This document shows positions 8,042 through 57,042 of a DNA stretch of 64,000 nucleotides, in pieces. The notes under the pieces are model-generated. The model ran no database searches and had not been told where the DNA came from. It saw nothing but the letters and a program-made list of their open reading frames with translations. The stretch is from a virus (taxonomy: Duplodnaviria; Caudoviricetes): the IMG/VR virus record IMGVR_UViG_3300009563_000549, positions 7,257-71,256 of that record; one strand, written 5' to 3'. Position numbers and translations under genes: made by a program. Position 1 is the stretch's first letter, and each line of letters begins with the position of its first letter.

Positions 8042-8112
8042 TTTTTCTCCTTAGCGAGGGTGTTTCCCTCATGAAGTAATGATAATCACGTTGTTGCAAA
8101 TGAACATACATT

Positions 8113-9432: not shown

Positions 9433-9462
9433 AAAAATCGACCAGAACTTAGTTCTGGTCGA
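9431..9462. terminator. Hairpin between convergent genes
   Basis: TCGACCAGAAC-tta-GTTCTGGTCGA 11 bp stem next to an A7 tract. Confidence 0.75.
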
Positions 9463-9483
9463 CCAGTCAGCTAAGCTGAAGCT

Positions 9484-9777: not shown

Positions 9778-9794
9778 TTTTGTTGGCTCCTTAA

Positions 9795-9941: not shown

Positions 9942-10016
9942 TTTGTTTTTCTCCGGAATGCCTCATCAATCGAGGACAATCAAATGTATTAAGTTTGTAG
10001 AGTTGTATAACTGAAT

Positions 10017-10409: not shown

Positions 10410-11008
10410 TTTTTTGCCATACTGTAAAAAATCATTTCTCTAATGACAGATTTCAAAATTTTTGTTTTGCTTTCTTTTAAAGATGTAATTTCTTTCAATT
10501 TGCGCCAATGTTCTTTAGATACTCCGTTAGGAATTCCGCCTGAGACTTTTTCAATTGCGACAAGGGCGGCGGCATATTTTGCTTTTTGTTTTGGTCCTGG
10601 TGAATGAGACAAATTATGAAGCATGTCAGCAAGCTTCACTCTTAAAACACGAGGCTTCTTAACAAGACCAATAACGTAATCTGTGTAATCTTGGTCTTTA
10701 GAATGGGTAAGCGACTTGACCGAGCTAATTACTTCGGCTGAAATCGAAGGATTGCTTATCGACCCTCTAATAAATTCTTCCATCTCCTCAGCGCTTTTTA
10801 CAGTTTTGCCAGGAGCGTCTTCAATTGTGTCATGAAGAAGAGCAACAAGCTGCGAAATTTTGTCACCTGGGTAGTATTTTCTGATGATGTCTCGAACAGC
10901 TGACGGATGTGTAAAGTATTCTTCACCGCTTCTTCTTTTTTGGCCTACGTGAGCCATTTGAGCTGTGCTATACACATCTTCAAAATCTTGTGCTGTTATT
11001 TTCGGCAT
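10406..11008 (-). CDS. RelA/SpoT-type HD hydrolase (small alarmone hydrolase-like)
   Basis: AHVGQKRRSGEEYFTHP, ALLHDTIED, VKLADMLHN. Confidence 0.88.
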   Translation of the reverse strand: MPKITAQDFEDVYSTAQMAHVGQKRRSGEEYFTHPSAVRDIIRKYYPGDKISQLVALLHDTIEDAPGKTVKSAEEMEEFIRGSISNPSISAEVISSVKSLTHSKDQDYTDYVIGLVKKPRVLRVKLADMLHNLSHSPGPKQKAKYAAALVAIEKVSGGIPNGVSKEHWRKLKEITSLKESKTKILKSVIREMIFYSMAKK

Positions 11009-14052: not shown

Positions 14053-14127
14053 TGGTAGGGGTGCCGGGACTCGAACCCAGAAAAGCGGAGTCAAAGTCCG
14101 CGGTGTTGCCAATTACACTACACCCCA
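14053..14127 (-). tRNA. tRNA-Gln(UUG)
   Basis: Cloverleaf, anticodon arm GCGGA-ctTTGac-TCCGC, encoded CCA; U1:U72 mismatch. Confidence 0.92.
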
Positions 14128-14132
14128 GTGAA

Positions 14133-14207
14133 TGGTACTCCCAACGGGAATCGAACCCGTGTTACCGGAGTGAAAATCCGGGATCCTGACCATTAGACGA
14201 TGGGAGC
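14133..14207 (-). tRNA. tRNA-Glu(UUC)
   Basis: CCGGA-ttTTCac-TCCGG, encoded CCA. Confidence 0.93.
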
Positions 14208-14210
14208 AAA

Positions 14211-14342
14211 CTAGTCACAAGCAAAATTCATGATTCTTTCATCTTCTGGTGAATTACAATCGATCGACCATGCTGCAACTGCAAAAGCAGGAATAAGAGC
14301 AAGAATGATCAGAAAAATTGACCTGTCAAGAAAGTTTATCAT
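14211..14342 (-). CDS. 43 aa membrane/secreted peptide (not in ORF track)
   Basis: MINFLDRSIFLIILALIPAFAVAAWSIDCNSPEDERIMNFACD*; RBS GAGG. Confidence 0.5.
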   Translation of the reverse strand: MINFLDRSIFLIILALIPAFAVAAWSIDCNSPEDERIMNFACD

Positions 14343-14357
14343 GATTACCTCACTATT

Positions 14358-14693
14358 TTAGGATAGAGAAAGATCTTTGTTAATAGAGATTACGTAATTT
14401 TCTACTGTTAGAATTCCGTGACGAATCATAGACAAAATTTTTCGATTAACATTTTTGTAAGTTCCGTCGTCAAGCTTGACATAAGCTTTTTGATAAATGC
14501 TATAATTAATTTTTCCTGCATAAACCCAGACAGAGGGCTTTGCAAGCTTAAAAAGCATTTCTAATTTCACTTCACGAAGTGAAGTAGGTCGCAAATAGCC
14601 GCTTACAGAAGTAGCAAAGATAAACTTTTTGTTTTTCCAAGAGTTAAGTAGTTCAAGTAGTTCTTTCTGCTTCTTAGTCATTTTCTTCTCCAA
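14358..14693 (-). CDS. Hypothetical protein
   Basis: ORF track. Confidence 0.55.
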   Translation of the reverse strand: MEKKMTKKQKELLELLNSWKNKKFIFATSVSGYLRPTSLREVKLEMLFKLAKPSVWVYAGKINYSIYQKAYVKLDDGTYKNVNRKILSMIRHGILTVENYVISINKDLSLS

Positions 14694-15492
14694 TTTGTTT
14701 TAATGCAAGATCGTAGTTTTTTCCGTATTCTGACATATTCACTTTTCCAATAAAAATGATCATGTCTTCTTTTTGAATTCGCTTTGAATAAGCAAGTTTT
14801 TTAATCGAATCTAATGCTCCTGCAATATGGAATTCTTTAAAATCTGGGAACGCACCATTTGCAGCTTTTACAAGCCAATCAACAAAAGCATCTTTTGAAG
14901 ACTCTTCAAAATCTTCAAGACCTTTAAAGTTGAAGTATTTAAAAAGACGATTGCCTAGAAACGGAGACTTTGTAGAGTTAATCCTGATCAACTTTTTGTC
15001 TTCAAGACGATGAAAGTCTTCGTTAAAGAAAACACTTTCACCATCAAAAGCAACCTGTGAATTAACCAAATCAAAATTCTGAAGAGTCTGCTCGATTGTA
15101 GGAAAGATTAGCTCTGGTGCATTCACAATTTGCACCACAAAACGAGAAAAATCAGCACCGACTGCGTTGCGGTAGTCTGTTACATTTGTTGCAAACTTCC
15201 CAAGACTTGGGGAGATACGAAAATCAGAACTAGAAGCAATAGTGTCTTCTGCACGATTAGCATCTTCTTTAGATCGGAAGAAGAAGTCAACATCACCGCG
15301 AGGCTCAGAAACGTTCGGAGAAAAATAGTTTTTGAGAGAATCGCCTCTTAAAAGGGCTCGAGCAAATCCGCCTGCAATAAATCCGTTGTTGTTAAAGCAA
15401 GCTTGAATTGATTCATTTTTCATAAACTCAAGAAAAAAGGAAGAGTTTGAAAAACTAGTTACAGACTTGGCAGGTACCTTTACAAATGTCAT
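14674..15492 (-). CDS. Nucleotidyltransferase (CCA/polyA-polymerase head-like)
   Basis: IAGGFARALL...RGDVDFFF; VVQIV; NFDLVNSQVAF. Confidence 0.7.
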   Translation of the reverse strand: MTFVKVPAKSVTSFSNSSFFLEFMKNESIQACFNNNGFIAGGFARALLRGDSLKNYFSPNVSEPRGDVDFFFRSKEDANRAEDTIASSSDFRISPSLGKFATNVTDYRNAVGADFSRFVVQIVNAPELIFPTIEQTLQNFDLVNSQVAFDGESVFFNEDFHRLEDKKLIRINSTKSPFLGNRLFKYFNFKGLEDFEESSKDAFVDWLVKAANGAFPDFKEFHIAGALDSIKKLAYSKRIQKEDMIIFIGKVNMSEYGKNYDLALKQIGEEND

Positions 15493-15503
15493 TTTTGTCT
15501 CGG

Positions 15504-15791
15504 TTAGTTGTTGGTAACTACAGGGATATAAACACAAGACATTGTTCTTGGGCTTCTTTCACGTGGAATCACGTAACACTCTACGTTTTCACGCGGGGAA
15601 AATTTTTCAACCCTTTCCGCATAGTATTCCTGATTTGCTACCTCGCGCTGTTTCTTTTTCGTCTCTTCCAACTCTTCTTTTTCCTGAGACGTAAGAACAT
15701 CGCTTGGGTTTTCTTTACAAGAGATTAATGCAATACAAGAGATTGATGCAAGAAAATGTAGAAAAAATACTGTAAGAATTGAATTTTTCAT
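15504..15791 (-). CDS. Putative lipoprotein
   Basis: Hydrophobic leader ending ALISC. Confidence 0.6.
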   Translation of the reverse strand: MKNSILTVFFLHFLASISCIALISCKENPSDVLTSQEKEELEETKKKQREVANQEYYAERVEKFSPRENVECYVIPRERSPRTMSCVYIPVVTNN

Positions 15792-15815
15792 TATTTTTGT
15801 CTCCTGCAAGGAATT

Positions 15816-16133
15816 TTAGCTGTCAAACACGCCACAACTGCAGCGGTGCCAATCTTCCCACCAGCCGCAATTGTTTTTATGTCTTTTCTTCTTGATTGCT
15901 TCGAGATCATTTTTCAAATGAGAATGAAAAGTGTCCTCATCGTCATCATCACTAAGAAGCCAATCGATCCTATGAACATATGCGAATGCTTCTTCCAAAA
16001 GGACTACTGCTTTCTTCATCTCCTCAAGAGTTTCAGGAGTGTAATCCTCTCGTTTGTCCCGTAGAACATGAGAGATCTGTTCAGCAATGTCTTCCATAAA
16101 GAATTGTTTGTACTCAAACTTCCCACCAGACAT
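15816..16133 (-). CDS. Hypothetical protein
   Basis: MSGGKFEYKQ...HRIDWLLSDDD. Confidence 0.6.
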   Translation of the reverse strand: MSGGKFEYKQFFMEDIAEQISHVLRDKREDYTPETLEEMKKAVVLLEEAFAYVHRIDWLLSDDDDEDTFHSHLKNDLEAIKKKRHKNNCGWWEDWHRCSCGVFDS

Positions 16134-16171
16134 TTTAGCTCCAGACAATAGCAAGTTTTTGTAATGAAAAG

Positions 16172-16255
16172 TGCCTTAGGCGGGACTCGAACCCGCACTC
16201 CTTTGAAGAAACCAGATTTTGAGTCTGGGGTGTCTACCAATTCCACCACTAAGGC
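16172..16255 (-). tRNA. tRNA-Leu(CAA)
   Basis: CCAGA-ctCAAaa-TCTGG, long variable arm, A73. Confidence 0.92.
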
Positions 16256-16265
16256 ATTACAAAAG

Positions 16266-16296
16266 TTTTTAATTCGGTTTGCAAAGCGTGTAAAGG
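16266..16296 (-). promoter_or_regulatory. Promoter upstream of tRNA-Leu
   Basis: TTTACA-cgctttgcaaACCGAAT-TAAAAA (17 nt spacer). Confidence 0.6.
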
Positions 16297-16320
16297 AACT
16301 TACTTGTTTTTGTAATAAAG

Positions 16321-16392
16321 TAGGACGCCCGGGATTCGAACCCGGAACCGAAGGATTAAGAGTCCTTTGCTCTGCCGTTGAGCTAGCGTCCT
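16321..16392 (-). tRNA. tRNA-Lys(CUU)
   Basis: AAGGA-ctCTTaa-TCCTT. Confidence 0.92.
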
Positions 16393-16395
16393 GTA

Positions 16396-16470
16396 TGGTG
16401 CCAAAAGAAGGATTCGAACCTACAACTACTCGCGTATGATACGAGTGCTCTACCGTTGAGCTATTTTGGC
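16396..16470 (-). tRNA. tRNA-CAU (elongator Met or Ile2)
   Basis: CTCGT-atCATac-GCGAG, encoded CCA; atypical A32/C38. Confidence 0.85.
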
Positions 16471-16476
16471 AAAAAG

Positions 16477-16549
16477 TCTGAGTAGCAGGACTCGAACCTG
16501 CGGCCTCCTGATCCCAAATCAGGCGCTCTACCAACTGAGCTACACCCAG
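16477..16549 (-). tRNA. tRNA-Pro(UGG)
   Basis: CCTGA-ttTGGga-TCAGG, C1:G72, A73. Confidence 0.92.
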
Positions 16550-16560
16550 AAATCAAAAAG

Positions 16561-16649
16561 TAGGAGAGGTGGGATTCGAACCCACAGTGTTTACCCGGAG
16601 GGAACGGATTTACAGTCCGTCGCTAGACCACCACCCTAGCAGCTCTCCT
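16561..16649 (-). tRNA. tRNA-Tyr(GUA)
   Basis: ACGGA-ctGTAaa-TCCGT, long variable arm. Confidence 0.9.
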
Positions 16650-16661
16650 AAAATTTTAAAG

Positions 16662-16733
16662 TGGGTTGCGTGGGATTCGAACCCACAACCGACGGATTAA
16701 AAGTCCGATGCTCTACCGTTGAGCTAGCAACCC
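16662..16733 (-). tRNA. tRNA-Lys(UUU)
   Basis: Anticodon loop ctTTTaa, standard D and T arms. Confidence 0.92.
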
Positions 16734-16741
16734 AAAAAAAG

Positions 16742-16815
16742 TCTCCCCACCAGGATTCGAACCTGGGACCTGCGGCTTAGAAGGCCGATGCTCTGTCCAG
16801 CTGAGCTATGGAGAG
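16742..16815 (-). tRNA. tRNA-Arg(UCU)
   Basis: Anticodon loop ctTCTaa. Confidence 0.92.
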
Positions 16816-16820
16816 AAAAG

Positions 16821-16894
16821 TAGGACGGGTGGGGGTTGAACCCACGTATCTTCAGGATATAAGCCTGACGCCTTCACCACTTGGCTACCGTCCT
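16821..16894 (-). tRNA. tRNA-Ile(UAU)
   Basis: TCAGG-ctTATat-CCTGA; acceptor AGGACGG/CCGTCCT, A73. Confidence 0.88.
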
Positions 16895-16925
16895 ACAAGG
16901 TAGATGTTGTTATCTTATCAAGATG

Positions 16926-17240
16926 TTAGAGATTGTTCAACTTTTCGATTAAATTTAAAACGCCTTTTTCTGAGGAACCAACCTGACTGTCAATAAGCAC
17001 TCCGTTGTGATAAGCTAAAACAGTTGGAATAGATAAAACATTCATTGAACGTGCAAATTCACTAGAATTTTCTATATCAACATAAGCAAATTGAATGTTA
17101 GCGTTAAGAGACGAAAAATTCTCCATCTTTGGTTTTAACATTTTGCAAGGACCGCACCACTCAGCTCCAAGCTGGAGGATGAGCTTTTGTGAAGTGCCAA
17201 TTTTGGCGGTTACTTCTGACGAAGATGCAATTTCTAACAT
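16926..17240 (-). CDS. trxA: Thioredoxin
   Basis: WCGPC, VLSIPT. Confidence 0.92.
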   Translation of the reverse strand: MLEIASSSEVTAKIGTSQKLILQLGAEWCGPCKMLKPKMENFSSLNANIQFAYVDIENSSEFARSMNVLSIPTVLAYHNGVLIDSQVGSSEKGVLNLIEKLNNL

Positions 17241-17276
17241 TTTAGATCCTGTTATACGTTTTTTATGATGAGAAAA

Positions 17277-17352
17277 TGGCGACGACAGCAGGACTCGAAC
17301 CTGCGACCAACGGATTAACAGTCCATCGCTCTACCAACTGAGCTATGTCGTC
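17277..17352 (-). tRNA. tRNA-Asn(GUU)
   Basis: Loop ctGTTaa, encoded CCA. Confidence 0.93.
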
Positions 17353-17356
17353 AAAT

Positions 17357-17431
17357 TGGAGCGGGAGACGGGACTCGAACCCGCAACAGTCAGCTTGGAA
17401 GGCTGAAGCTCTACCATTGAGCTACTCCCGC
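17357..17431 (-). tRNA. tRNA-Gly(UCC)
   Basis: TCAGC-ctTCCaa-GCTGA, U73, encoded CCA. Confidence 0.93.
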
Positions 17432-17444
17432 ATAGTAATAAAAG

Positions 17445-17529
17445 AGGAAGCGGAGGGATTCGAACCCTCGGAGCCTTTCGACTCGGCGGTTTTCAAGACC
17501 GCTGCCTTAAACCACTCGGCCACGCTTCC
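17445..17529 (-). tRNA. tRNA-Ser(UGA)
   Basis: GCGGT-ctTGAaa-ACCGC, long variable arm. Confidence 0.92.
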
Positions 17530-17532
17530 AAA

Positions 17533-17621
17533 TGGAGCCCGGAGTGGGATTCGAACCCACGATGCGGTATTACCCAACCGCCTTACAAGAGCGGTGCCTT
17601 CGACCTCTGGGCAATCCGGGC
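17533..17621 (-). tRNA. tRNA-Thr(UGU) with atypical long variable arm
   Basis: Acceptor GCCCGGA/TCCGGGC, U73, CCA; CCGCT-ctTGTaa-GGCGG; ~17 nt variable region; class II-type D arm. Confidence 0.85.
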
Positions 17622-44114: not shown

Positions 44115-44687
44115 TTATTCATGTTCCATCATAAGAGCGCATGAGTCATCATCTGCATCTTCTTTTGCTTTTTCTATGTAAGATCTAACTGCGCTGATAA
44201 CGATAGCCGGATCTTTGCAAAGATCAAAGTGCGTCAGCTCTCCGTCGTAACCCGATGCAAGCTTCTCAATTTCCCGAAGAGCAGAATACATTCTTTCTGT
44301 CAAAGTGTCAGGCTGCTTTTTGTAAAGCATGTTCAAGAGCCATCCCATCCATCTTTCTTCTACTGCTGTCTCTGTTACTGAAATTACAGTATGCGGGACC
44401 GCCAGCTCAGCGAGGATTTGTGAAACTAACTTTGCCGCAGGGTGATTTGCGGAAGAAACGCATACAGGAACGTTGCGAGGCCCCAAGACCTCCTGGGCAT
44501 AATGCTGCCCATTCCAGACAGGCATGTCGTGGTCGAGCATGACAGCAAACACCTTCCCGCTGTCCAAAAGAATTTCAGCAGCATCAGGTGACTGCACGCA
44601 ACACACGATTACATCGTGTTCTAGCAATAGGTTTGCAATGTGCGAATATCTTGCTGCGTCATCATCAATTGCAAGTAAAACTTTCAT
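44115..44687 (-). CDS. Receiver-like domain protein (cyclic-phosphate-processing receiver type)
   Basis: LAIDDDAARY...VMLDHDM...SSAN. Confidence 0.6.
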   Translation of the reverse strand: MKVLLAIDDDAARYSHIANLLLEHDVIVCCVQSPDAAEILLDSGKVFAVMLDHDMPVWNGQHYAQEVLGPRNVPVCVSSANHPAAKLVSQILAELAVPHTVISVTETAVEERWMGWLLNMLYKKQPDTLTERMYSALREIEKLASGYDGELTHFDLCKDPAIVISAVRSYIEKAKEDADDDSCALMMEHE

Positions 44688-44699
44688 TTTATCTCCTAT

Positions 44700-45056
44700 T
44701 CAAATTGAGCATTTTGACGGCGTGACTGTAACTGTTTGACGACCGAACCTCTTTGCAGACTCTTTAGATTTTAAGAGAAGATCGACTCTGTTTCCCTTAA
44801 TGTCTCCGCCCACGTCAGCAGCAAGATAAACTGTGCTGTGACCATCAGCAAATTTTACTCTGTAACACTTACCGAGTGTAAGAACTTTTGGATCAACTGC
44901 CATGATTTTTGCAGACCAAGGATCAGCTACAATCCCAATTTTTGTTATTCCGGTGCAACCTACACAATCCGCAGTGTAAGCCGTTGCAACAAATTTACGT
45001 CCAGAGTCAGCAGTTGCGGATGCAAAAGCAAAGAACATAAGAAAGAAAATTTTCAT
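44700..45056 (-). CDS. Secreted 3D-domain (peptidoglycan-modifying) protein
   Basis: Signal peptide; ATAYT...AVDPKV...AADVGGDIKGNRVDL. Confidence 0.85.
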   Translation of the reverse strand: MKIFFLMFFAFASATADSGRKFVATAYTADCVGCTGITKIGIVADPWSAKIMAVDPKVLTLGKCYRVKFADGHSTVYLAADVGGDIKGNRVDLLLKSKESAKRFGRQTVTVTPSKCSI

Positions 45057-45138: not shown

Positions 45139-45414
45139 TTAAAATTTAAGAGTGCTTAAAGTGTTTGCTTTCAAATGATAATGCGACGGAATACCGCTTC
45201 CGTCACCGTCTTCTTCTCCGAAAAGGAATAATCGACCATCACCCCACCCATCGCCTGGGATTATGTGATCGCTATAACGATAGCCGTCTCCGTACCCATC
45301 TTCTCCACCTACCTCAAAACCTTGCCCGTGGCCATTACCATTTGTCAATGAGCCGTGACAAAAATTTAGAGCAATTTCTTCATCAGTGTAGATGGAGAAA
45401 AAAATCCAATTCAA
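45139..45414 (-). CDS. Orphan member of the W-F-CxG Gly-rich family
   Basis: MNWIFFSIYTDEEIALNFCHGSLTNGNGHGQG...GDGWGDG. Confidence 0.8.
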   Translation of the reverse strand: MNWIFFSIYTDEEIALNFCHGSLTNGNGHGQGFEVGGEDGYGDGYRYSDHIIPGDGWGDGRLFLFGEEDGDGSGIPSHYHLKANTLSTLKF

Positions 45415-49241: not shown

Positions 49242-49763
49242 TTACTTTTCTTTTTTAGACTTTGCTAATTTTGAAAAGCCTTTTTTAAGAGCTTCAACAA
49301 CAGTTGGGATAAAAGAGTAGTTTCCAATTTCATCTTCTGAAATCCACTCGTATTTATCATTTTCTGCAATTCCGTGAGTTTCTACAAGCTTAACTTCGCC
49401 GCTCCACTCACCTGGCATTGTTATGAAAAACGCCGCCGACCATTTTTCTTTTTCGTAATTGATTACTGCAAGAGGAGAAATTTTTCCAATTTTCAACGTC
49501 GTTTCTTCCGACGCTTCTCTCTTTGCAGCTTTCATAGCGCTTTCTCCTTCGTCAATGCTTCCACCTGGAAGACTCCATTTTCCAGGCATCCAAGGAGCAG
49601 TAGGTCCTCTTCGAAGGATTAGCACTTTACGATCTTTGTTAAGAACAACGGTCGCGGCTGAACTTGGCTCATACTTACCTGATGCTTCTTGAAGAGAACC
49701 ATTACGTTCTAATCTTAGCATTTCACGAATGATTAATCTTAAAGCTAGATTTTTATCAAGCAT
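49242..49763 (-). CDS. NUDIX hydrolase (paralog of 21376)
   Basis: TAPWMPGKWSLPGGSIDEGESAMKAAKREASEET. Confidence 0.9.
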   Translation of the reverse strand: MLDKNLALRLIIREMLRLERNGSLQEASGKYEPSSAATVVLNKDRKVLILRRGPTAPWMPGKWSLPGGSIDEGESAMKAAKREASEETTLKIGKISPLAVINYEKEKWSAAFFITMPGEWSGEVKLVETHGIAENDKYEWISEDEIGNYSFIPTVVEALKKGFSKLAKSKKEK

Positions 49764-49767
49764 GACA

Positions 49768-50016
49768 TCAAAATCCTTGATCAAATTTTTCTTGATCTTT
49801 TTTAAATTCTGCGTAAAAGCCGTCAATTACACTCATCATTTCATCATATGCACTGTCGACGTCACCGCCATTTTCATTCATCCAATTTTCAAGCCACTCA
49901 TAAACTGCAAGATCAAGACTTGAATTTGCTTTTGGTGGAGACGGATAAGACCCTCCCATCTCTTTAATGATTTGTTTTGAAATAACTCTACGAAGAGAAG
50001 ATTCAGTAATTTTCAT
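49768..50016 (-). CDS. Small protein with MKITESSLRRVI N-terminus
   Basis: ORF track. Confidence 0.6.
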   Translation of the reverse strand: MKITESSLRRVISKQIIKEMGGSYPSPPKANSSLDLAVYEWLENWMNENGGDVDSAYDEMMSVIDGFYAEFKKDQEKFDQGF

Positions 50017-50025
50017 TTTAGCCTC

Positions 50026-50658
50026 TTATTTAATCTTTAAATCAAGAATTCCAAGTGAATTTAATTCGTCAAGAATAGGTGTCGATTTTTTCATAAATGC
50101 TCTTGACAATGAAACATCATTCCATTTTTTTGAACCACCAGAGTCTGCTGATACGGACCTTGACATAAATTGGTTACAGTCATCATCAGGATAGTCGGGA
50201 GTTAGATCACCGTCTTCATTATCAAGTTGAATTTTTTCGACATCACCTCTTTCCGTATCATAGAAATCCCAAATTTTCTGAGCCTTGTCACTTACTTCAT
50301 CACGGTCAGATGCAAGTGAGAGTCCTTTTAAAGAAAGAATTTCCATTGCAATATCATAGATAAGTGGTCCAAGTCCTTTGACTCTTGCAGAAGACCATGT
50401 TACTTCCCAAGCCTTTGAACAGGGACCACCAGCTTGTAAGTTGTAGTACGGTTTTTCAAATCTTATTTCAGCAGCACGTTCAACTTCGCCGGAGTCTTTG
50501 TTCGTTATGTAAATGTTTACATTACCGTTTGATTTTAAACATTTAGCAACGACATCAACATCACCAAGAGACATAAGGTCAGACGGAGTAAGAGCAGCTT
50601 CATTAAGTAAAAGCTGCTCTCTAATGAGACTTCTTAGAAGTGTCTCAAATTGTCTCAT
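50026..50658 (-). CDS. GNAT-like paralog family, copy 3
   Basis: GGPCSKAW...GLGPLIYDIAME...LASDRDEVSDKAQKIWDFY...QLDNEDGDLTPDYPDDDC. Confidence 0.55.
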   Translation of the reverse strand: MRQFETLLRSLIREQLLLNEAALTPSDLMSLGDVDVVAKCLKSNGNVNIYITNKDSGEVERAAEIRFEKPYYNLQAGGPCSKAWEVTWSSARVKGLGPLIYDIAMEILSLKGLSLASDRDEVSDKAQKIWDFYDTERGDVEKIQLDNEDGDLTPDYPDDDCNQFMSRSVSADSGGSKKWNDVSLSRAFMKKSTPILDELNSLGILDLKIK

Positions 50659-50928
50659 TTAGTATCTTCTGTACCTTGAGCTGCTTGATCCAAACCCATA
50701 GCCTCTCGAGTATCCTCCTCGAGAACCGCTGTCGTATGCTACACCGTCTCCATCATCGAGCAAACCGTGTGATTCTGGATCGTCATCAAAATACTCTTCG
50801 TTTCCTTCATCATCGACAAGATACGTCTCATTCCCTCTACGAATAAGAGCACGCTCAGACTCCATTAGTCTTTTTGCTTCTTCTCGAACAATTTGACGTA
50901 GCTTGCTTTCTGTAAGTCTCATAATCAC
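50659..50928 (-). CDS. Small protein with MRLTESKLRQIVREE N-terminus and G/S/R/Y low-complexity tail
   Basis: Ends GSRGGYSRGYGFGSSSSRYRRY. Confidence 0.65.
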   Translation of the reverse strand: MIMRLTESKLRQIVREEAKRLMESERALIRRGNETYLVDDEGNEEYFDDDPESHGLLDDGDGVAYDSGSRGGYSRGYGFGSSSSRYRRY

Positions 50929-51003: not shown

Positions 51004-51360
51004 TCACAAATACTTTAAGCTCTGCCCGTCGCCCTCTTCATTTCCGTAAGTCGAGGAATCTCCATTGTTAGGATCGTAATTGTCTATTTCTCCGAGTGAT
51101 TCTCCTTCTCCTGTTATGAAGAGACAATACTCACCGTTTCCGTATCCACCACCAGCCGATCTAGAAACAGGAGTGTATTCATGTTCTGGTTTAGAAGCGT
51201 CATTTTCCGACTGCGAACAATCACCACCTCCAAACCCTCCGCCGTCATAATAACCATAAGCTTGACTATAACCGTAGCCGTCACCTTTGTGTAGATTTCC
51301 TGCACAAAAATGTAAGCTATCTTTCTCTTTAGTTGTTATTCCAACAAATTTCCAGGTCAT
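51004..51360 (-). CDS. Gly-rich array member
   Basis: MTWKFVGITTKEKDSLHFCAGNLHKGDGYG. Confidence 0.85.
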   Translation of the reverse strand: MTWKFVGITTKEKDSLHFCAGNLHKGDGYGYSQAYGYYDGGGFGGGDCSQSENDASKPEHEYTPVSRSAGGGYGNGEYCLFITGEGESLGEIDNYDPNNGDSSTYGNEEGDGQSLKYL

Positions 51361-51611
51361 TTTGGACTCCCACCGTCACCGGTCCTGATAGTAAACCAAT
51401 TTTCGTTCTCATTTTTTGCGCCACCAGCGCCCCCGCCGCCGCAACCTTCTCCACAACCGTTTCTGTATCCGTAACCGAATCCTGTTCCTCCGCCGTTGTC
51501 TGCGCCCAGTTTATCATAGGTGCCCAAACCATCGCCTTCAGAAAGTGTAGCTCCACAATAACGTGAAAGTTTTTGGTCGAAGGTTTCCATTCCAATAAAT
51601 TGCCAAGTCAT
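51357..51611 (-). CDS. Gly-rich array member
   Basis: MTWQFIGMETFDQKLSRYCGATLSEGDG. Confidence 0.88.
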   Translation of the reverse strand: MTWQFIGMETFDQKLSRYCGATLSEGDGLGTYDKLGADNGGGTGFGYGYRNGCGEGCGGGGAGGAKNENENWFTIRTGDGGSPK

Positions 51612-51859
51612 TGTTCGTCTCCACCATCACCCCAGCCATCGCCGTCGTCGCCGTCACCTTTGCCATCACCGGCTTGGGCGGCGTAGCCGCAACCAAACCC
51701 GTGTCCATCTCCTATTCCATTTCCGTAGAGGTCTCCATCACCATCTCCCCAACTACGACCATTTTTGACTCCAAATCCTTTTCCTGAAGTCAAAGTCCCG
51801 TGACAAAAATTAAGAGCTTTCCTCTCAGTAGACTCCATTCCAACAAAGTGCCAAGTCAT
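51608..51859 (-). CDS. Gly-rich array member
   Basis: MTWHFVGMESTERKALNFCHGTLTSG...GDEQ. Confidence 0.88.
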   Translation of the reverse strand: MTWHFVGMESTERKALNFCHGTLTSGKGFGVKNGRSWGDGDGDLYGNGIGDGHGFGCGYAAQAGDGKGDGDDGDGWGDGGDEQ

Positions 51860-51861
51860 TT

Positions 51862-52140
51862 TTAATCTCCGTTGTCACCGCCTCCATCTCCATAATTGCA
51901 ACCGTCACCCCAGCCTTCCCCTGAATAATAGTGATCTACATATTCGTTGTAATAAGGAACGCTATTGACATTGATAACGTAGGTAGTATCTCTGCAACCG
52001 CTACCGTTACCTTTTTTATCACCATAAAAGAGTCCATCACCGCGTCCGTTAATGTGACCTTGATTATTGTCTGGAAAGCCGTGACAAATTGACAAAACTT
52101 TTTCCTCGATTGTTTCCATTCCAATAAATTGCCAGGTCAT
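51862..52140 (-). CDS. Gly-rich array member
   Basis: MTWQFIGMETIEEKVLSICHG. Confidence 0.88.
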   Translation of the reverse strand: MTWQFIGMETIEEKVLSICHGFPDNNQGHINGRGDGLFYGDKKGNGSGCRDTTYVINVNSVPYYNEYVDHYYSGEGWGDGCNYGDGGGDNGD

Positions 52141-52349
52141 TGTTCGTCTCCACCATCACCCCAGCCATCACCGCTTTCATATCCGTATCCGCAACCCCAT
52201 CCGTATCCAGGATTGTGTTCATCTTCGTATGCGGACCTGTTCCCCCATTCGAGTCCGTTTCCCATTCCGTCTCCTGACGTTAAAGTTCCTCCACAAAGAT
52301 AAAGAGCTTTCTCGTCAGGAGAGTCCATTTCGACAAAGTGCCAGGTCAA
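52137..52349 (-). CDS. Gly-rich array member
   Basis: MTWHFVEMDSPDEKALYLCGGTLTSG...GDEQ. Confidence 0.88.
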   Translation of the reverse strand: MTWHFVEMDSPDEKALYLCGGTLTSGDGMGNGLEWGNRSAYEDEHNPGYGWGCGYGYESGDGWGDGGDEQ

Positions 52350-52615
52350 TTTACGCCCCAGCCGTCGCCGTCATTTTCATAATCTGAATACTCTATTAAT
52401 TGTTCATCAATTGAGTAGTTTCCCCACTGAGATCCGTCTCCATCAATAGATTGACAATAAAAGCAGGAGCTTCCATTGCCGTATCCATCACCGTCAGTTG
52501 CGATGGATGCGTATTCTTCGCTAATCCCAGTCCCATCGCCAAATTCAGATCCTGTTTGGCAATTATGAAGAGCGCTTTTTTCTTGTGATTCCATTCCAAC
52601 AAAGCGCCAAGTCAT
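52346..52615 (-). CDS. Gly-rich array member
   Basis: MTWRFVGMESQEKSALHNCQTG. Confidence 0.88.
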   Translation of the reverse strand: MTWRFVGMESQEKSALHNCQTGSEFGDGTGISEEYASIATDGDGYGNGSSCFYCQSIDGDGSQWGNYSIDEQLIEYSDYENDGDGWGVN

Positions 52616-52836
52616 TCTGAACTCCTGCCATCACCGGTTATGTCTACGTCTACGTATCCCCACCCGTGTCCGTCTCCCCGTCCATCTCTGTATCCTTGTC
52701 CGTCTCCGTATCCCCGTCCGTATCCGTATCCCCGTCCGTCTCCGTCTCCAAATCCGTTTCCTGACGTCAAAGTTCCACCACAAATACAAAGAGTTTCCTC
52801 TTCAGGAGAGTTTGCTCTAACAAAGCGCCAAGTCAT
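52612..52836 (-). CDS. Gly-rich array member
   Basis: MTWRFVRANSPEEETLCICGGTLTSG...GRSSE. Confidence 0.88.
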   Translation of the reverse strand: MTWRFVRANSPEEETLCICGGTLTSGNGFGDGDGRGYGYGRGYGDGQGYRDGRGDGHGWGYVDVDITGDGRSSE

Positions 52837-53075
52837 TCTGAACTCCTGCCATCACCGGTTATATCTCCGTATCCGTATTCCCATCCGCTTCCGTTTCCGT
52901 CTCCACCTCCGTCTCCGTATCCGTATCCGTATCCGTATCCTCGTCCGTCTGCGTATCCACGTCCGTATCCCCGTCCATATCCGTCTCCCCTGCTGTAGGC
53001 CGACGTCATAGTTCCGCCACAAATGACCAAAACTTTCTCATAAGGAGACTTCATTCCGACAAATTTCCAGGTCAT
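52833..53075 (-). CDS. Gly-rich array member
   Basis: MTWKFVGMKSPYEKVLVICGGTMTS...GRSSE. Confidence 0.88.
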   Translation of the reverse strand: MTWKFVGMKSPYEKVLVICGGTMTSAYSRGDGYGRGYGRGYADGRGYGYGYGYGDGGGDGNGSGWEYGYGDITGDGRSSE

Positions 53076-53175
53076 GCTGCGCTCCTGAAAGACGTGACAT
53101 AACCTATTAATTCATTTGAGCAAAAGTAGAAGGTGAGTTTTGAAAAAAAGCTCAATTTAAAGTCCCTAAAGTACT

Positions 53176-53421
53176 CTAAAAATTATTCACTCCATCGCCA
53201 TATGATCGACCGTATTCGCTACCATAACCATATCCATCTCCTAAGCCTAATGCATCACCATAACCCTCATAGACACCGTCACCCCAACCTTCTCCTTCCT
53301 CACCGCCGCCGTATCCGCGACCAGAACCGTCACCCCAACCTTCTCCCTCTGATAAGGATGCACCACAAAATTCAATAATTTTTGATTCAAAAGTTTCTAT
53401 CTCAACAAAGTGCCAAATCAT
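53176..53421 (-). CDS. Gly-rich array member
   Basis: MIWHFVEIETFESKIIEFCGASLSEG. Confidence 0.88.
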   Translation of the reverse strand: MIWHFVEIETFESKIIEFCGASLSEGEGWGDGSGRGYGGGEEGEGWGDGVYEGYGDALGLGDGYGYGSEYGRSYGDGVNNF

Positions 53422-53663
53422 TTTTGCTGACCTTTGAATTTAAATCCGCCTCCACGACCGTCACCGGTAGAGATGCTGTCTTTGGTTAAGCTTCCATACC
53501 CAAACATAGCTCCGTCTCCACGCCTTAAAGAAGACCCATAACCCCAGCCATCTCCTTTATAACCGTCTCCTTCTCCGTATCCGTCTCCTGAAGAGAGCGT
53601 TCCTTCGCAAAGATAAAGAACTTTTAACTCAGGGGGTTCCATTCCGACAAAGTGCCAAATCAT
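53418..53663 (-). CDS. Gly-rich array member
   Basis: MIWHFVGMEPPELKVLYLCEGTLSSG. Confidence 0.88.
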   Translation of the reverse strand: MIWHFVGMEPPELKVLYLCEGTLSSGDGYGEGDGYKGDGWGYGSSLRRGDGAMFGYGSLTKDSISTGDGRGGGFKFKGQQK

Positions 53664-53929
53664 CCTATGTCCCTTTTAAGTCCGTATCCGTCTCCGTTTT
53701 CATATCCGTGTCCGCAACCGAACCCGCTTCCGCTTCCATCTGCATACACAGGTGAGTCTCCGCTGCCGTCTCCATCGAAGTCTTCGCCCTCAAAGATGCC
53801 CCCGCCATCGCCGCATGCGTCGCCATATTCAAATCCGTCTCCATATCCAAATTTTGACGCCGAGCCTACGCAGCAAACGTCCAAAGCTTTCTCCTCAGGA
53901 GACTTAATTTCAACAAAGTGCCAAGTCAT
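53660..53929 (-). CDS. Gly-rich array member
   Basis: MTWHFVEIKSPEEKALDVCCVG. Confidence 0.88.
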   Translation of the reverse strand: MTWHFVEIKSPEEKALDVCCVGSASKFGYGDGFEYGDACGDGGGIFEGEDFDGDGSGDSPVYADGSGSGFGCGHGYENGDGYGLKRDIG

Positions 53930-54150
53930 GCTGAGCTCTCTCCATCACCGGTTATGTATCCGCTTCCGCTTCCGTTTTCGTATCCGTTTCCGTTTCCGTT
54001 TCCGTTTCCGTGCCCGTATCCGTCTCCCCATCCGTATCCGTGTCTGTGTCCAAATCCAAATCCGTTTCCATTTCCTGACGTTAAAGTTCCGTCACAAAGA
54101 TTAAGAGCTTTCTCGTTAGGAGAGTCCATTCCGATAAAGTGCCAAGTCAT
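53926..54150 (-). CDS. Gly-rich array member
   Basis: MTWHFIGMDSPNEKALNLCDGTLTSG...GESSA. Confidence 0.88.
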   Translation of the reverse strand: MTWHFIGMDSPNEKALNLCDGTLTSGNGNGFGFGHRHGYGWGDGYGHGNGNGNGNGYENGSGSGYITGDGESSA

Positions 54151-54395
54151 TTTGGACTCTCTCCGTCGCCGTCACCGTCACCGTCACCGTCTCCCCATCC
54201 GTCACCGTCACCGTCACCGTCTCCCCATCCGTCTCCGTCTCCGTATCCATATCCCTGTCCGTATCCGCATCCGTTTCCCCGTCCGTATCCCCGTCCATAT
54301 CCGTCTCCCCATCCGTTTCCTGACGTCAAAGTTCCGCCACAAAGATAAAGAGCTTTCTCATCAGTAGTGTCCATTTCGACAAAGTGCCAGGTCAT
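54147..54395 (-). CDS. Gly-rich array member
   Basis: MTWHFVEMDTTDEKALYLCGGTLTSG...GESPK. Confidence 0.88.
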   Translation of the reverse strand: MTWHFVEMDTTDEKALYLCGGTLTSGNGWGDGYGRGYGRGNGCGYGQGYGYGDGDGWGDGDGDGDGWGDGDGDGDGDGESPK

Positions 54396-54628
54396 GCTGA
54401 GCTCTCTCCATCACCGCGAGAGGTGCCATAATCGAATCCGTCTCCTACTCCATTTCCTTCTTGACCCCAGTATCCGCTCCCCCATCCGTACCCGCACCCC
54501 AGTCCGTCTCCGTCTCCATCTATGTCTCCCCATCCATAACCCTCTCCGTCTCCCGATGTCAAAGTTCCGCCGCAAATGCGAAGAGTTTCCTCTTCAGGAG
54601 GGTCTGCTCTAACAAAGTGCCAAGTCAT
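54392..54628 (-). CDS. Gly-rich array member
   Basis: MTWHFVRADPPEEETLRICGGTLTSG...GESSA. Confidence 0.88.
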   Translation of the reverse strand: MTWHFVRADPPEEETLRICGGTLTSGDGEGYGWGDIDGDGDGLGCGYGWGSGYWGQEGNGVGDGFDYGTSRGDGESSA

Positions 54629-54637
54629 GCTGAGCTC

Positions 54638-54850
54638 CTATCGCTTATCGTATCCGTGTCCGTCTCCGCATCCGCCTCCGTATCCGCTTCCATATCCGTT
54701 TCCGCTTCCGTATCCGTCTCCGTTTCCACCTCCGTCTCCGTCTCCGTTTCCGCTTCCGTATCCTAATCCGTTTCCTGACGTTAAAGTTCCGCCACAAAGA
54801 TAAAGAGCTTTCTCATCAGGAGTGTCCATTTCGACAAAGTGCCAGGTCAT
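54638..54850 (-). CDS. Gly-rich array member
   Basis: MTWHFVEMDTPDEKALYLCGGTLTSG...GYDKR. Confidence 0.88.
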   Translation of the reverse strand: MTWHFVEMDTPDEKALYLCGGTLTSGNGLGYGSGNGDGDGGGNGDGYGSGNGYGSGYGGGCGDGHGYDKR

Positions 54851-55095
54851 TTTGGACACTCTCCATCGCCGTTATTGAAACCGTAAAGACTACGATCATC
54901 ATATTCATTTCCGCCGTCTCCATCACCGAAGCCGTCACCCCAACCGTCACCTCTCCAGTTTCCGTAATTACAACTGATGCCATTGCCGTCCCACACCAGA
55001 CCGCCGCTGCGTCCATCATTGATGGTAAGAGACCCACAACAGTAGGATAGAGCAACAACATCAGCAGCGTCCATTCCAATAAAGCACCAGGTCAT
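54847..55095 (-). CDS. Gly-rich array member
   Basis: MTWCFIGMDAADVVALSYCCGSLT. Confidence 0.88.
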   Translation of the reverse strand: MTWCFIGMDAADVVALSYCCGSLTINDGRSGGLVWDGNGISCNYGNWRGDGWGDGFGDGDGGNEYDDRSLYGFNNGDGECPK

Positions 55096-55352
55096 TCTGG
55101 ACTCTCTCCGTTGCCGTTATCAAAACCGTAAAGACAATTGCTTTGATGCCCACCATTGCCGTATCCGTCACCGCAGCCGTCACCCCAGCCGTCACCAGCA
55201 GAGTTTCCGTAAGGGCAACCGGTGCCGTTACCATTCCACTCCATGCCGGTGCCGGGCAGCGAGCCGTGTCCATCATCGGCAGTAAGAGACCTATAGCAAC
55301 GGAATGAAGCAATAGCATCAGCAGCGTCCATTCCAACAAAGTGCCAAGTCAT
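55092..55352 (-). CDS. Gly-rich array member
   Basis: MTWHFVGMDAADAIASFRCYRSLT. Confidence 0.88.
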   Translation of the reverse strand: MTWHFVGMDAADAIASFRCYRSLTADDGHGSLPGTGMEWNGNGTGCPYGNSAGDGWGDGCGDGYGNGGHQSNCLYGFDNGNGESPE

Positions 55353-55361
55353 GCTGAGCTC

Positions 55362-55499
55362 CTATCGCTTATCGTATCCGTATCCGAATCCGTATCCCCA
55401 TCCATCTCCTGACGTTCCTGCCCTTGTTAATGTTTTATTGTAACAACAATCAAGAGCTTTTTCCTCAAAAAGTTCCATTCCGACAAAGTGCCAAGTCAC
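55362..55499 (-). CDS. Gly-rich array member (GTG start, 45 aa)
   Basis: VTWHFVGMELFEEKALDCCYNKTLT...GYDKR; GTGA overlap with upstream stop. Confidence 0.82.
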   Translation of the reverse strand: MTWHFVGMELFEEKALDCCYNKTLTRAGTSGDGWGYGFGYGYDKR

Positions 55500-55750
55500 A
55501 ATGAACTTTCCCCGTCGCCGCCGCCGAAGTAGGGGAGGTCTTCGTACAAGCATTCACCACAACCAAATCCAAAGTTGTAGTCGCCACCATCTACGTTACC
55601 GGCACCTGTGCAAAGTGTCAGAGTTTCTTCACTGTCACCTTCACCATCGCCATATCCGTCACCGTATCCGTATCCATTCGTTAGGGTCCCATGGCAAAAA
55701 TTTGCAATTTTTTCTTCGATCGTCTCAAATCCGATAAACCGCCAGTTCAT
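55496..55750 (-). CDS. Gly-rich array member (first transcribed)
   Basis: MNWRFIGFETIEEKIANFCHGTLTNGYG. Confidence 0.88.
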   Translation of the reverse strand: MNWRFIGFETIEEKIANFCHGTLTNGYGYGDGYGDGEGDSEETLTLCTGAGNVDGGDYNFGFGCGECLYEDLPYFGGGDGESSL

Positions 55751-55811: not shown

Positions 55812-55840
55812 AACAAAAAAAGCGTCGGCCCAGGCGACGC
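55812..55840 (-). terminator. Terminator upstream of the array
   Basis: GCGTCG/CGACGC stem followed by T7 on minus strand. Confidence 0.65.
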
Positions 55841-56001: not shown

Positions 56002-56586
56002 TTAAATAAACCGACCCTCACCTTTGGGAATAAAAACTTCGTATTCATCTTTTGAGAATTTAGACTTGATGTCTTTGTAACTTGGAGTCTCTTTGTCTCC
56101 CCAAAACATTTTCCTCTTATCAGGTGCAGCAGCAGAAGCAAAACGATCATTCTCATAACGACCGTGAACATACTTTCGAAGATTATCAGCATCAACACGC
56201 GCCCATCCAGGAGCTGTTGGGTCGATCTCTGCTCCCGGAACATTTGGAATACGTGTGTAGAGACTACCTACGTATCGGGCACGTTTTAGTGAAAGACTTG
56301 GGTCCGCGCGTTTGTTCGCTTTCATAAGCTCGTATCGACTACGACGAGTCCCGCTAACAATTCCTGATGAATCTGTTGATCCAACAAGGAATGGTTCAAA
56401 GTGGGGAAAAATAAATGCCCAAACTCCAGGTCCTGGAGCTGTACCCTTCTCTTGTGGAACGGAAGACCACCCGCCAAGGCGCGTAACAACAATACCAGGG
56501 CCTTTTCTGTAATTTTCTGTACTTGCAATTTCAGAAATAATTTGAGCTCTTATGAGAGACCGAAGATGTGATTCTGTAATTTTCAT
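56002..56586 (-). CDS. Hypothetical protein with MKITESHLRSLIR N-terminus
   Basis: ATAAATA motif at 56601-56607, RBS GGAG/GAGG. Confidence 0.7.
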   Translation of the reverse strand: MKITESHLRSLIRAQIISEIASTENYRKGPGIVVTRLGGWSSVPQEKGTAPGPGVWAFIFPHFEPFLVGSTDSSGIVSGTRRSRYELMKANKRADPSLSLKRARYVGSLYTRIPNVPGAEIDPTAPGWARVDADNLRKYVHGRYENDRFASAAAPDKRKMFWGDKETPSYKDIKSKFSKDEYEVFIPKGEGRFI

Positions 56587-56620: not shown

Positions 56621-56842
56621 TTATTTAAGGAGAGAGTCTTTTTTGTTTTCAAAAAATTGAAGCTCGTAAATGTTGAATTGACATCTCATTCCGTCAATGA
56701 AGACAACAATTGGATTTGCAAGGTACTCTTCATCAATTGTCTCAAAGAAGATTCCGGCTTTTCCATTGTGAGGAGAAGAGCTTACAACTTTTACAAGATC
56801 GCCAGGCTTCAATAAAGAGGCCACCAGATTTTTTTTGCACAT
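56621..56842 (-). CDS. Small SH3/KOW-like protein
   Basis: LKPGDLVKV...GKAGI. Confidence 0.6.
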   Translation of the reverse strand: MCKKNLVASLLKPGDLVKVVSSSPHNGKAGIFFETIDEEYLANPIVVFIDGMRCQFNIYELQFFENKKDSLLK

Positions 56843-57018
56843 GATACAATCTTTCCGTGAGTGAAAACAACATCACCGGCGTATTTGCCATTTTTATCAG
56901 TCTGGCCAACGTAGACGCCAATTGAGTTGCACGGAATACTAAAAAATTCACCTGTTAGAGTATCAAGACCTGGGTAAATAGGCCACCCTTTGAGGATGAC
57001 AAGATCGCCAGGTTTCAT
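56809..57018 (-). CDS. Small SH3/KOW-like protein
   Basis: MKPGDLVIL...IGVYVG. Confidence 0.6.
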   Translation of the reverse strand: MKPGDLVILKGWPIYPGLDTLTGEFFSIPCNSIGVYVGQTDKNGKYAGDVVFTHGKIVSCAKKIWWPLY

Positions 57019-57042
57019 GGCAATCTTACCTTTCATTCTTTT

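Follow-up and report, generated by a model that had tools for sequence, protein, structure and literature searches.

A fragment of a very large aquatic phage carries 20 copies of a small gene, 19 of them in a translationally coupled array, and each copy encodes an N-terminal head of 27 residues followed by a disordered, mostly acidic, glycine-rich tail. The family is genuine, extremely rare and matches nothing characterized, so that any function assigned to it is inferred from sequence alone. The window, i.e., the whole 64,000-nucleotide stretch analyzed, comes from a 71-kb record (IMGVR_UViG_3300009563_000549; about 17% complete) of a huge phage with a T4-like replisome from aquatic metagenomes. 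No family in Pfam, PHROG, NCBIfam or PADLOC fits these proteins, the only hits being low-complexity matches. A profile of the head scored against 1.84 billion proteins finds only this family, whereas a full-length profile finds 53 small proteins, and every contig examined among these carries them in coupled arrays. The family has so far been found only on phage-like metagenome contigs.

The original prediction of 19 consecutive minus-strand genes of 45–118 amino acids at 51004–55750, in two blocks with a constant head and a variable tail, is confirmed by the sequence. The first block (55750–53176) comprises 11 genes: member 1 (55496–55750; 84 aa, ATG at 55750, with the head M-N-W-R-F-I-G), member 2 (55362–55499; 45 aa, the shortest, with a GTG start at 55499 and a GTGA overlap with member 1, and identical to a protein returned by the profile search), member 3 (55092–55352; 86 aa), member 4 (54847–55095; 82 aa), member 5 (54638–54850; 70 aa from the ATG at 54850), member 6 (54392–54628; 78 aa), member 7 (54147–54395; 82 aa, with the most regular Gly-X tail), member 8 (53926–54150; 74 aa, the first row of the alignment used for structure prediction), member 9 (53660–53929; 89 aa), member 10 (53418–53663; 81 aa, the only one with a net-basic tail) and member 11 (53176–53421; 81 aa). 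The tail-end/head junction of member 6 duplicates that of members 2/3, with 85% identity. A spacer of 100 nucleotides (53076–53175), the only long non-coding gap in the array, separates this block from the second (53075–51004), which comprises 8 genes: member 12 (52833–53075; 80 aa), member 13 (52612–52836; 74 aa), member 14 (52346–52615; 89 aa), member 15 (52137–52349; 70 aa, with a TTG start at 52349 and a TTGA overlap), member 16 (51862–52140; 92 aa), member 17 (51608–51859; 83 aa), member 18 (51357–51611; 84 aa) and member 19 (51004–51360; 118 aa). The remaining 17 genes start with ATG. In addition, we found a 20th, solitary member that was missing from the original prediction (45139–45414, minus strand; 91 aa, TTG start), located 5.6 kb downstream of the array. 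Just upstream of the array, a terminator-like hairpin with a T-run (55822–55840, minus strand), which is a consensus match only, separates it from the gene at 56002–56586.

Of the 18 junctions in the array, 14 are 4-nucleotide start/stop overlaps (12 ATGA, one GTGA and one TTGA), two are gaps of 9 nucleotides, one is a gap of 2 nucleotides, and one is the 100-nucleotide spacer. A Shine-Dalgarno-like tetramer lies at −16 to −6 in 18 of the 20 genes, and in the coupled genes it sits inside the last codons of the previous gene, as had been predicted. The coupling is ancestral, in that overlapping starts and stops, together with a C-terminal G-[DG]-G-x-S motif that encodes GGAG, recur in every foreign array.

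The head follows the pattern M-x-W-x-F-[VI]-G-x-[ED]-...-E-x-K-A-L-x-x-C-x-G-[TS]-L-[TS]-x-G, in which M1, W3, F5 and C19 are invariant and G28 is nearly so. The conserved residues use several synonymous codons (five codons for L23, and TGT 13 times and TGC 6 times for C19), and across pairs of paralogous heads pN is 0.36 against a pS of 0.59, indicative of position-specific purifying selection at the protein level. However, between near-identical strains the head dN/dS, which the original prediction had proposed as a test, is about 0.8 on only 13 substitutions, and recent constraint on the heads is therefore not demonstrated. All 20 heads in the record carry Gly-X tails, as do all true hits of the head profile among the 1.84 billion proteins, so that the head is never seen on a protein without such a tail.

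The tails, of 18–91 residues, contain 34% Gly, 12% Asp, 9% Tyr, 6% Ser, 5% Glu and 5% Asn, with aromatic residues making up about 14% and a net charge of about −12 per 100 residues; 18 of the 20 tails are net acidic. Strict (G-X)n≥3 runs cover 7–95% of a tail, so the predicted Gly-X character holds for most tails but not for all. Amino-acid composition correlates at r = 0.98 between three lineages (about 0.90 without Gly), compared with 0.28 against ordinary proteins of this phage, whereas tail identity between paralogues is 35%, against 30% for shuffled tails. On the Gly-X scaffold, Asp/Asn alternates with Tyr/Trp/Phe more than Gly-preserving shuffles predict (z = 4–7). AlphaFold2, given an alignment of 38 sequences, returned a pLDDT of 46 and predicts no stable fold, and the Atlas model of member 7 has a pLDDT of 0.37. 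The constant N-terminal module joined to a polymorphic, Gly-rich, low-complexity, Asp/Asn-containing tail recalls the PE_PGRS proteins of mycobacteria, and the disordered acidic tail used as a handle recalls the Gly-rich acidic linkers of SSB type, but there is no sequence relationship, and the proteins here are tiny, phage-encoded and arrayed, with a Gly-X dipeptide repeat containing aromatics.

The interpretation offered in the original prediction, a deliberately diversified peptide repertoire with hypervariable tails, is only partly supported. A protein-level-constrained family with a constant head, which is the specific part, and a variable tail, absent from the curated libraries, is borne out, but deliberate diversification and hypervariability are not supported. 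The tail differences are between old paralogues, as orthologues in a closely related strain (contig L016, which carries orthologues of members 16, 18 and 19 but lacks member 17) are about 90–97% identical, with a tail dN/dS of about 0.49. The record contains no reverse transcriptase (no RVT_1 hit) of the kind that drives variability in diversity-generating retroelements, so the tails are not hypermutated. Variation keeps the reading frame, as in a population variant of member 7 with an in-frame 30-nucleotide deletion at 54169 in a GDG repeat, and in the gain or loss of a whole member. What is conserved in the tails is composition and patterning, not sequence, which looks like relaxed sequence constraint on a disordered region plus repeat slippage and gene gain or loss, not a designed repertoire. 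None of the roles suggested in the original prediction could be shown; precursors for modifying enzymes encoded elsewhere remain a live alternative, whereas decoy, condensate and metal-binding roles remain inferences.

What the analysis establishes is the two-part architecture, with a selectively constrained head and a tail conserved in composition and patterning but not in sequence or length, and an array whose overlapping starts and stops and embedded ribosome-binding sites are built for translation as a chain. Beyond this, we infer, tentatively, that the proteins act collectively, as many roughly equimolar copies of a head-anchored, disordered, aromatic polyanion. In this view, the head would dock every copy onto one common phage-encoded partner or assembly, or would be the handle of a processing enzyme, whereas the tail would be the bulk working part, a flexible, acidic, cation-binding or nucleic-acid-like filler or brush, most plausibly acting in virion assembly or as virion cargo. 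High copy number would serve dosage, and paralogue differences would reflect drift under a compositional constraint, not a designed set of specificities. Expression, binding and packaging are all inferred, no partner has been identified, and the bulk role rests on composition alone; moreover, an acidic chain inside a DNA-filled capsid is not an obvious need.

The genomic context gives this reading some support. Genes on both sides of the array share another N-terminal tag beginning [IL]-T-E-S, the [IL]-x-E of which matches the T4 prohead-protease site. The T4 internal-protein locus, with its capsid-targeting sequence, likewise has phage genes in tandem that share a short N-terminal module followed by divergent sequence. 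However, the array heads lack a conserved [LI]-x-E site, as position 9 is Glu in 7, Asp in 7 and other residues in 5 of the 19 heads tallied, with Gly at P3, and no other conserved [LI]-x-E is present in the head. In addition, the tails are of one low-complexity type rather than unrelated cargo, and the flanking genes have an upstream ATAAATA motif that the array does not. In two foreign lineages the arrays adjoin an orthologous MoxR AAA+ ATPase, which is embedded in the arrays of contigs L014, L015 and L026; in contig L027 the ATPase (AAA_5) is followed by a metallopeptidase-vWA protein (DUF2201_N/DUF2201). This same gene pair, found in group 2.2 jumbo phages, has been proposed to act in virion assembly and processing (PMC7824862). 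The pair adjoins arrays in some lineages only, is absent from the 71-kb record, and occurs without adjacent arrays in related phages (L031 and L032), so the linkage may be plain synteny, and a client relationship is pure inference.

The main alternative, possible but less likely, is a RiPP-like precursor array, in which the head would be a leader peptide recognized by a maturase encoded elsewhere in the largely unsequenced genome, and the tail a core that is cross-linked, for example by three-residue cyclophanes on aromatic-x-Asp/Asn motifs, and/or cleaved from the leader. The architecture of a conserved leader plus a variable core in many tandem copies fits this reading, as does the invariant Cys of the head, and a metallopeptidase-vWA protein and an FGE-sulfatase-domain protein lie near arrays in some lineages. 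The tails weakly resemble TIGR04260, the GrrA/OscA1 cyclophane precursor family, which also has a conserved N-terminal part followed by a Gly-rich repeat region rich in aromatic-x-Asn/Asp triplets. Five of 38 members match, with a best E-value of 0.0096, but the scores are far below the cut-off (9.9 against 31 bits for the first member), the match covers only the Gly-rich part (profile positions 72–115), and the head is unrelated to the GrrA leader. Aromatic-G-[DN] triplets, the substrates of rSAM cyclophane synthases (OscB links Trp to Asn/Asp, and YxdB links Tyr to Asp; PMC11002830), are about twice as frequent as Gly-preserving shuffles predict (39 against 22, and 38 against 17.5; z = 4–6), but the reverse order, [DN]-G-aromatic, is enriched too, and five of 38 members have no such triplet. 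RiPP precursors normally sit beside their maturase, yet the 71-kb record, which is only about 17% of the genome, has no radical-SAM, GrrM-type (TIGR04261), C39-peptidase, Asp-hydroxylase (Asp_Arg_Hydrox) or 2OG-oxygenase (2OG-FeII_Oxy_3) gene, and no Radical_SAM hit appears in the precomputed Pfam tables of about 60 kb of foreign flanks. Strongly acidic cores of 45–90 residues are also atypical, and the tails here are much more acidic and longer than those of GrrA/OscA1, on phage genes in arrays of up to about 20 coupled copies. Prochlorosin-type arrays similarly combine, in one genome, many ProcA paralogues with one conserved leader and hypervariable cores, but the tails here are all of one compositional type rather than free-form Cys/Ser/Thr peptides, the genes are translationally coupled, and Pfam searches gave no Nif11/NHLP leader and no LanM-type enzyme. 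A double-glycine leader of the bacteriocin/microcin type is likewise not present, as G20 occurs in only 8 of the 19 heads tallied, with no bacteriocin Pfam hit and no Peptidase_C39 in the record.

A role as host-takeover or anti-defence decoys is doubtful. Each member would be a flexible polyanion whose Asp carboxylates and aromatic rings imitate nucleic acid or another acidic ligand and titrate host DNA/RNA-binding or defence proteins, with the paralogues covering different targets. The proteins are small, acidic and cytoplasmic-looking, with no signal peptide or hydrophobic segment, and many phage anti-restriction and DNA-mimic proteins are small and acidic; the array lies downstream of a region of many small genes, and the paralogues are diverse. 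However, no PADLOC model (which cover defence systems only) or other library matches, conservation of composition but not sequence argues against target-specific interfaces, no fold is predicted, and a pure mimic leaves the conserved head and its invariant Cys unexplained.

Self-assembly into fibres, a beta-roll-like or silk-like stack, or a condensate that organizes the infection or decorates the particle, possibly with Ca2+/Mg2+ bound by D-G-D-G-D-G-type loops, is unlikely. The composition of Gly spacers and aromatic stickers, the 22 D-G-D triplets in the window tails and the short tail strands in the low-confidence AlphaFold2 model are in its favour, and translational coupling suits co-assembling subunits. 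On the other hand, there is no HemolysinCabind/RTX hit (at E ≤ 1) or other repeat-family hit, the repeat unit is a Gly-X dipeptide without the nonapeptide periodicity of GGxGxDxUx repeats, no confident fold is predicted, and the strong net negative charge disfavours homotypic association without counter-ions.

Least likely of all is that the ORFs have no protein function, are not meaningfully translated and are a by-product of a DNA- or RNA-level repeat or of a neutral or selfish expansion. In its favour, low-complexity repeats keep several frames open, head dN/dS between near-identical strains is close to 1 on few substitutions, and copy number varies between strains. Against it, no Rfam family matches, conserved residues vary in their synonymous codons, start/stop overlaps with correctly spaced Shine-Dalgarno sequences are conserved in 18 of 20 genes and across lineages that share no nucleotide similarity, tail composition is conserved, and indels keep the frame.

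The minus strand of positions 51004-55750 holds 19 consecutive ORFs of 45-118 aa, arranged as two blocks of 11 and 8 genes that are separated by a 100-nt spacer. Of the 18 junctions, 14 are 4-nt start/stop overlaps (12 ATGA, one GTGA and one TTGA), two have 9-nt gaps and one has a 2-nt gap. A search of the record with one member revealed a 20th, solitary copy at 45139-45414 (-), next to which, at 44115-45056 (-), lie a secreted 3D-domain protein (with peptidase/lytic-transglycosylase-like PHROG hits) and a response-regulator-receiver-like protein. Eighteen of the 20 genes have an SD-like tetramer at -16..-6, which in the coupled genes lies inside the last codons of the preceding gene and explains the recurrent C-terminal ending of the G-D-G-E-S type. 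A terminator-like hairpin at 55840-55822 precedes the array. The original prediction, which described 19 coupled mini-genes with a conserved W-F-Cys head and Gly-X tails, is therefore correct in almost every detail.

Alignment of the members gives invariant M1, W3, F5 and C19 and a near-invariant G28, and the head consensus is M-T-W-H-F-V-G-M-x-x-x-E-E-K-A-L-x-x-C-x-G-T-L-T-S-G. From residue 28 onwards, the tails are 34% Gly, 12% Asp, 9% Tyr and about 14% aromatic, carry a net charge of about -12 per 100 residues (18 of 20 tails are acidic), and are free of any hydrophobic segment or signal peptide. Strict (G-X)n runs cover 7-95% of individual tails.

The 71-kb IMG/VR record, of which the window is 64 kb, is rated 17% complete by CheckV. 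The window encodes T4-type topoisomerase II subunits, a DNA ligase, a helicase and 14 tRNAs, and the nearest topoisomerase relatives, at 53-54% identity, are the 635-642-kb 'uncultured phage' genomes LR745206 and LR756502; this is therefore a fragment of a huge phage. The tRNA genes are clustered at 14053-17621 (-) and include Gly(UCC), Tyr(GUA) and Asn(GUU). The array tails prefer GGA (52%, against 38% in large ORFs), but the effect is modest and not discriminating. Public runs that contain the array at 95% identity or more are aquatic metagenomes of one study. Two metatranscriptome runs contain most of the array; however, their contigs cover the array and 6-7 kb of both flanks alike, such that transcription cannot be told apart from carried-over phage DNA.

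No Pfam, PHROG, NCBIfam or PADLOC family matches beyond low-complexity noise, and TrAA12 Pfam hits of up to 34.7 bits were judged to be low-complexity matches to a Gly-rich stretch of that model. A 30-column head profile, scored against every one of 1.84 billion representative proteins, found 19 proteins, i.e., window members, three near-orthologues and about seven foreign relatives, and all true hits carry Gly-X tails. A full-length profile found 53 small proteins in a collection of 5.8 billion, including a large subfamily with the head M-[N/VD]-W-[HK]-[FL]-[CY]-I-D-S-P-x-x-R-A-L-x-x-C-x-G-S. Two relatives, P0064 (186 aa, on a 70.9-kb contig) and P0067 (97 aa), keep only the second half of the head (helix plus G-S-[FL]-T-x-G-D-G) before the Gly-X stretch, and P0064 continues into a globular C-terminal domain with no Pfam match. 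Almost every metagenome contig that could be opened (L012-L016, L018 and L025-L029) carries several members head to tail with overlapping stops and starts, with up to about 17 in a row on L027, whereas the 514-nt contig L017 holds a single member.

The three complete huge-phage genomes closest to this one (LR756502, LR745206 and LR756504) contain no family member with either profile, and no near-identical DNA was found in cultured or complete phages. DNA patterns of the head had no match in IMG/VR and gave six chance hits to unrelated proteins in JGI metagenome contigs; a word-indexed search with residues 1-40 found nothing; and no longer fused forms were found, which is weak evidence. Sequence searches of the PDB with the family profile returned nothing meaningful, and the ESM Atlas returned only unnamed viral clusters with no family lead. 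The family is rare and lineage-restricted, but clearly not an artefact of one assembly.

Within the heads, conserved residues are written with different synonymous codons (L23 with five codons, C19 with TGT and TGC), and paralogue pairs show pN of 0.36 against pS of 0.59, which is protein-level constraint. Against a near-identical strain represented by L016 and L017, orthologues are about 90-97% identical, with dN/dS of about 0.8 for the head (13 substitutions) and about 0.49 for the tail (26 substitutions). Although these numbers are small (39 substitutions in total), they show that the tails are not hypermutated, and the record contains no reverse transcriptase. The reading offered with the original prediction is only partly supported: a protein-level-constrained family with a constant head and a variable tail is supported, whereas a 'deliberately diversified' repertoire with 'hypervariable' tails is not. 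The strain of L016 has members 16, 18 and 19 in a row (window 51004-52140) but lacks member 17, indicating that whole genes are gained or lost. One population variant, a contig of a public run (X2), lacks 30 nt in frame within the GDG repeat of member 7 (window 54169), a length polymorphism of a tail in the natural population, and tail-end/head junctions are duplicated within the array. Tail amino-acid composition is almost identical in three divergent lineages (r = 0.98, or about 0.90 without Gly), compared to r = 0.28 against ordinary proteins of the phage, whereas tail sequences are hardly more alike than shuffles (35% against 30%). Asp/Asn and aromatic residues alternate more often than G-preserving shuffles predict (z = 4-7).

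AlphaFold2 with the 38-sequence alignment gives pLDDT of 46 and shows only a weak helix at residues 11-18 and low-confidence strands in the tail, and the Atlas model of member 7 has pLDDT of 0.37. Homo-oligomer prediction with four heads gave no verdict and is not evidence either way. The tails are best described as intrinsically disordered, and the head probably folds only on a partner.

In the window, the array sits between genes whose products start with a different shared tag, M-[KR]-[IL]-T-E-S...L-R-x-x-I-R. Five such flanking genes, at 49242-50928 and 56002-56586 (-), follow the broader form M-[KR]-[IL/Q]-[T/F]-E-[ST]...L-R-x-x-I-[RS], including a NUDIX hydrolase at 49242-49826, and the [IL]-T-E-S start resembles a T4-type prohead-protease site. 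Directly downstream of the array, the 89-aa product of 50659-50928 (-) combines this tag with an acidic stretch and a basic Gly/Tyr/Ser-rich C-terminus, a second kind of low-complexity tail. An ATAAATA motif lies 15-25 nt upstream of the genes on either side of the array, starting at 56586 and 50928, and of three other genes, starting at 35719, 61840 and 11026, but not upstream of the array itself.

In foreign lineages, a 362-aa AAA_5 (MoxR-like) ATPase is embedded in or abuts the arrays, and the copies on contigs L014 and L027 are 61% identical although the adjacent heads belong to different subtypes. On L027 the ATPase is followed by a DUF2201_N + DUF2201 protein, a metallopeptidase-vWA fusion; Iyer et al. 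describe exactly this pair in T4-like jumbo phages and propose for it a role in virion assembly and processing (PMC7824862). However, the same pair occurs on contigs L031 and L032 without Gly-X arrays and is not present in the 71-kb record, and we treat the linkage as a lead only. A highly conserved 90-aa non-Gly gene (p90; 92-100% identical between contigs) opens sub-blocks of the arrays on L018 (238-510), L027 (3442-3723 and 4761-5024) and L029 (10671-10943). It has no Pfam, PHROG or meaningful PDB match, is absent from the record studied here, and gave an unusable AlphaFold2 model (pLDDT 39). An FGE-sulfatase-domain gene lies three genes upstream of the first array member on L029.

Among known systems, the precursors of GrrA/OscA1 triceptides are the nearest named thing. 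The tails give a weak TIGR04260 match (best E-value of 0.0096, far under the cut-off) and are rich in aromatic-G-Asp/Asn triplets, which published rSAM enzymes cross-link (PMC11002830). However, the head is unrelated, the reverse triplet is enriched too, and no radical-SAM/SPASM gene is found in the record or in the precomputed Pfam tables of about 60 kb of foreign flanks. Double-glycine bacteriocins, RTX repeats, DGR targets and Gly-Asp tails linked to an Asp-hydroxylase each fail a defining feature. The T4 internal proteins with a capsid-targeting sequence resemble the family in design only; the heads lack a conserved [LI]-x-E site.

The data establish a two-part protein with a selected head and a compositionally selected, disordered, acidic-aromatic tail, translationally coupled arrays that are ancestral to the family, and drift in copy number and length; expression and function are matters of inference. 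In the mechanism we consider most likely, the products would work as a collective, in which the head docks all copies to one partner or assembly, or serves as the handle of a processing enzyme, the tail supplies a bulk physical property (a flexible polyanion with aromatic stickers), and high gene number gives dosage. We tentatively favour an assembly- or virion-associated role, because of the tagged neighbours and the MoxR/vWA-peptidase linkage elsewhere, but our confidence in this is low.

Of the alternatives, RiPP-like leader-core precursors survive best, although we regard them as doubtful, and nucleic-acid-mimic or anti-defence decoys are only slightly less plausible. About as unlikely as the decoys, but not excluded, is that the arrays encode a new class of phage leader-core peptides: the 27-residue head would be the handle for a still unrecognised processing machine, for example the MoxR/vWA-metallopeptidase pair that adjoins arrays in other lineages, or an unseen cross-linking enzyme, and the released or modified acidic Gly-aromatic chains would then be loaded into or onto the giant virion as a new kind of disordered polyanionic cargo or coat. 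A self-assembling or cation-dependent material is less likely still, and an absence of protein function is the least likely.

No described family or system fits, literature searches found no description of such arrays, and by sequence and by architecture this is a new kind of phage gene array, as judged from a record covering about 17% of the genome. Huge phages are full of lineage-specific small genes whose logic is unknown, and this family provides a clean, testable case, having a short conserved head that must recognise something, a disordered tail that is selected for composition rather than sequence, and a gene architecture, with overlapping stop/start codons and an SD inside the C-terminus of the previous gene, that would enforce chain translation of up to about 20 paralogues. 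If the products are virion cargo or an assembly matrix, they would be a new physical component of giant capsids; if they are modified peptides, they would extend RiPP-like biosynthesis to phages. The family is also a natural example of dual coding, where C-terminal residues double as the ribosome-binding site, and of compositional selection on intrinsically disordered proteins.

We note that arrays of small paralogues seem to be a habit of this phage group. Small paralogous genes with a K-[PR]-G-D-L-V motif (SH3/KOW-like look) lie at 56621-57036 (-) in the window, and L031, from a related phage, has a long array of them at 7100-10860. On L029, runs of about 57-aa mini-ORFs at 5060-5644 and 8003-8303 repeat the first 50 or so residues of the FGE-sulfatase-domain protein at 8314-9054, forming another series of mini-genes with a shared head.
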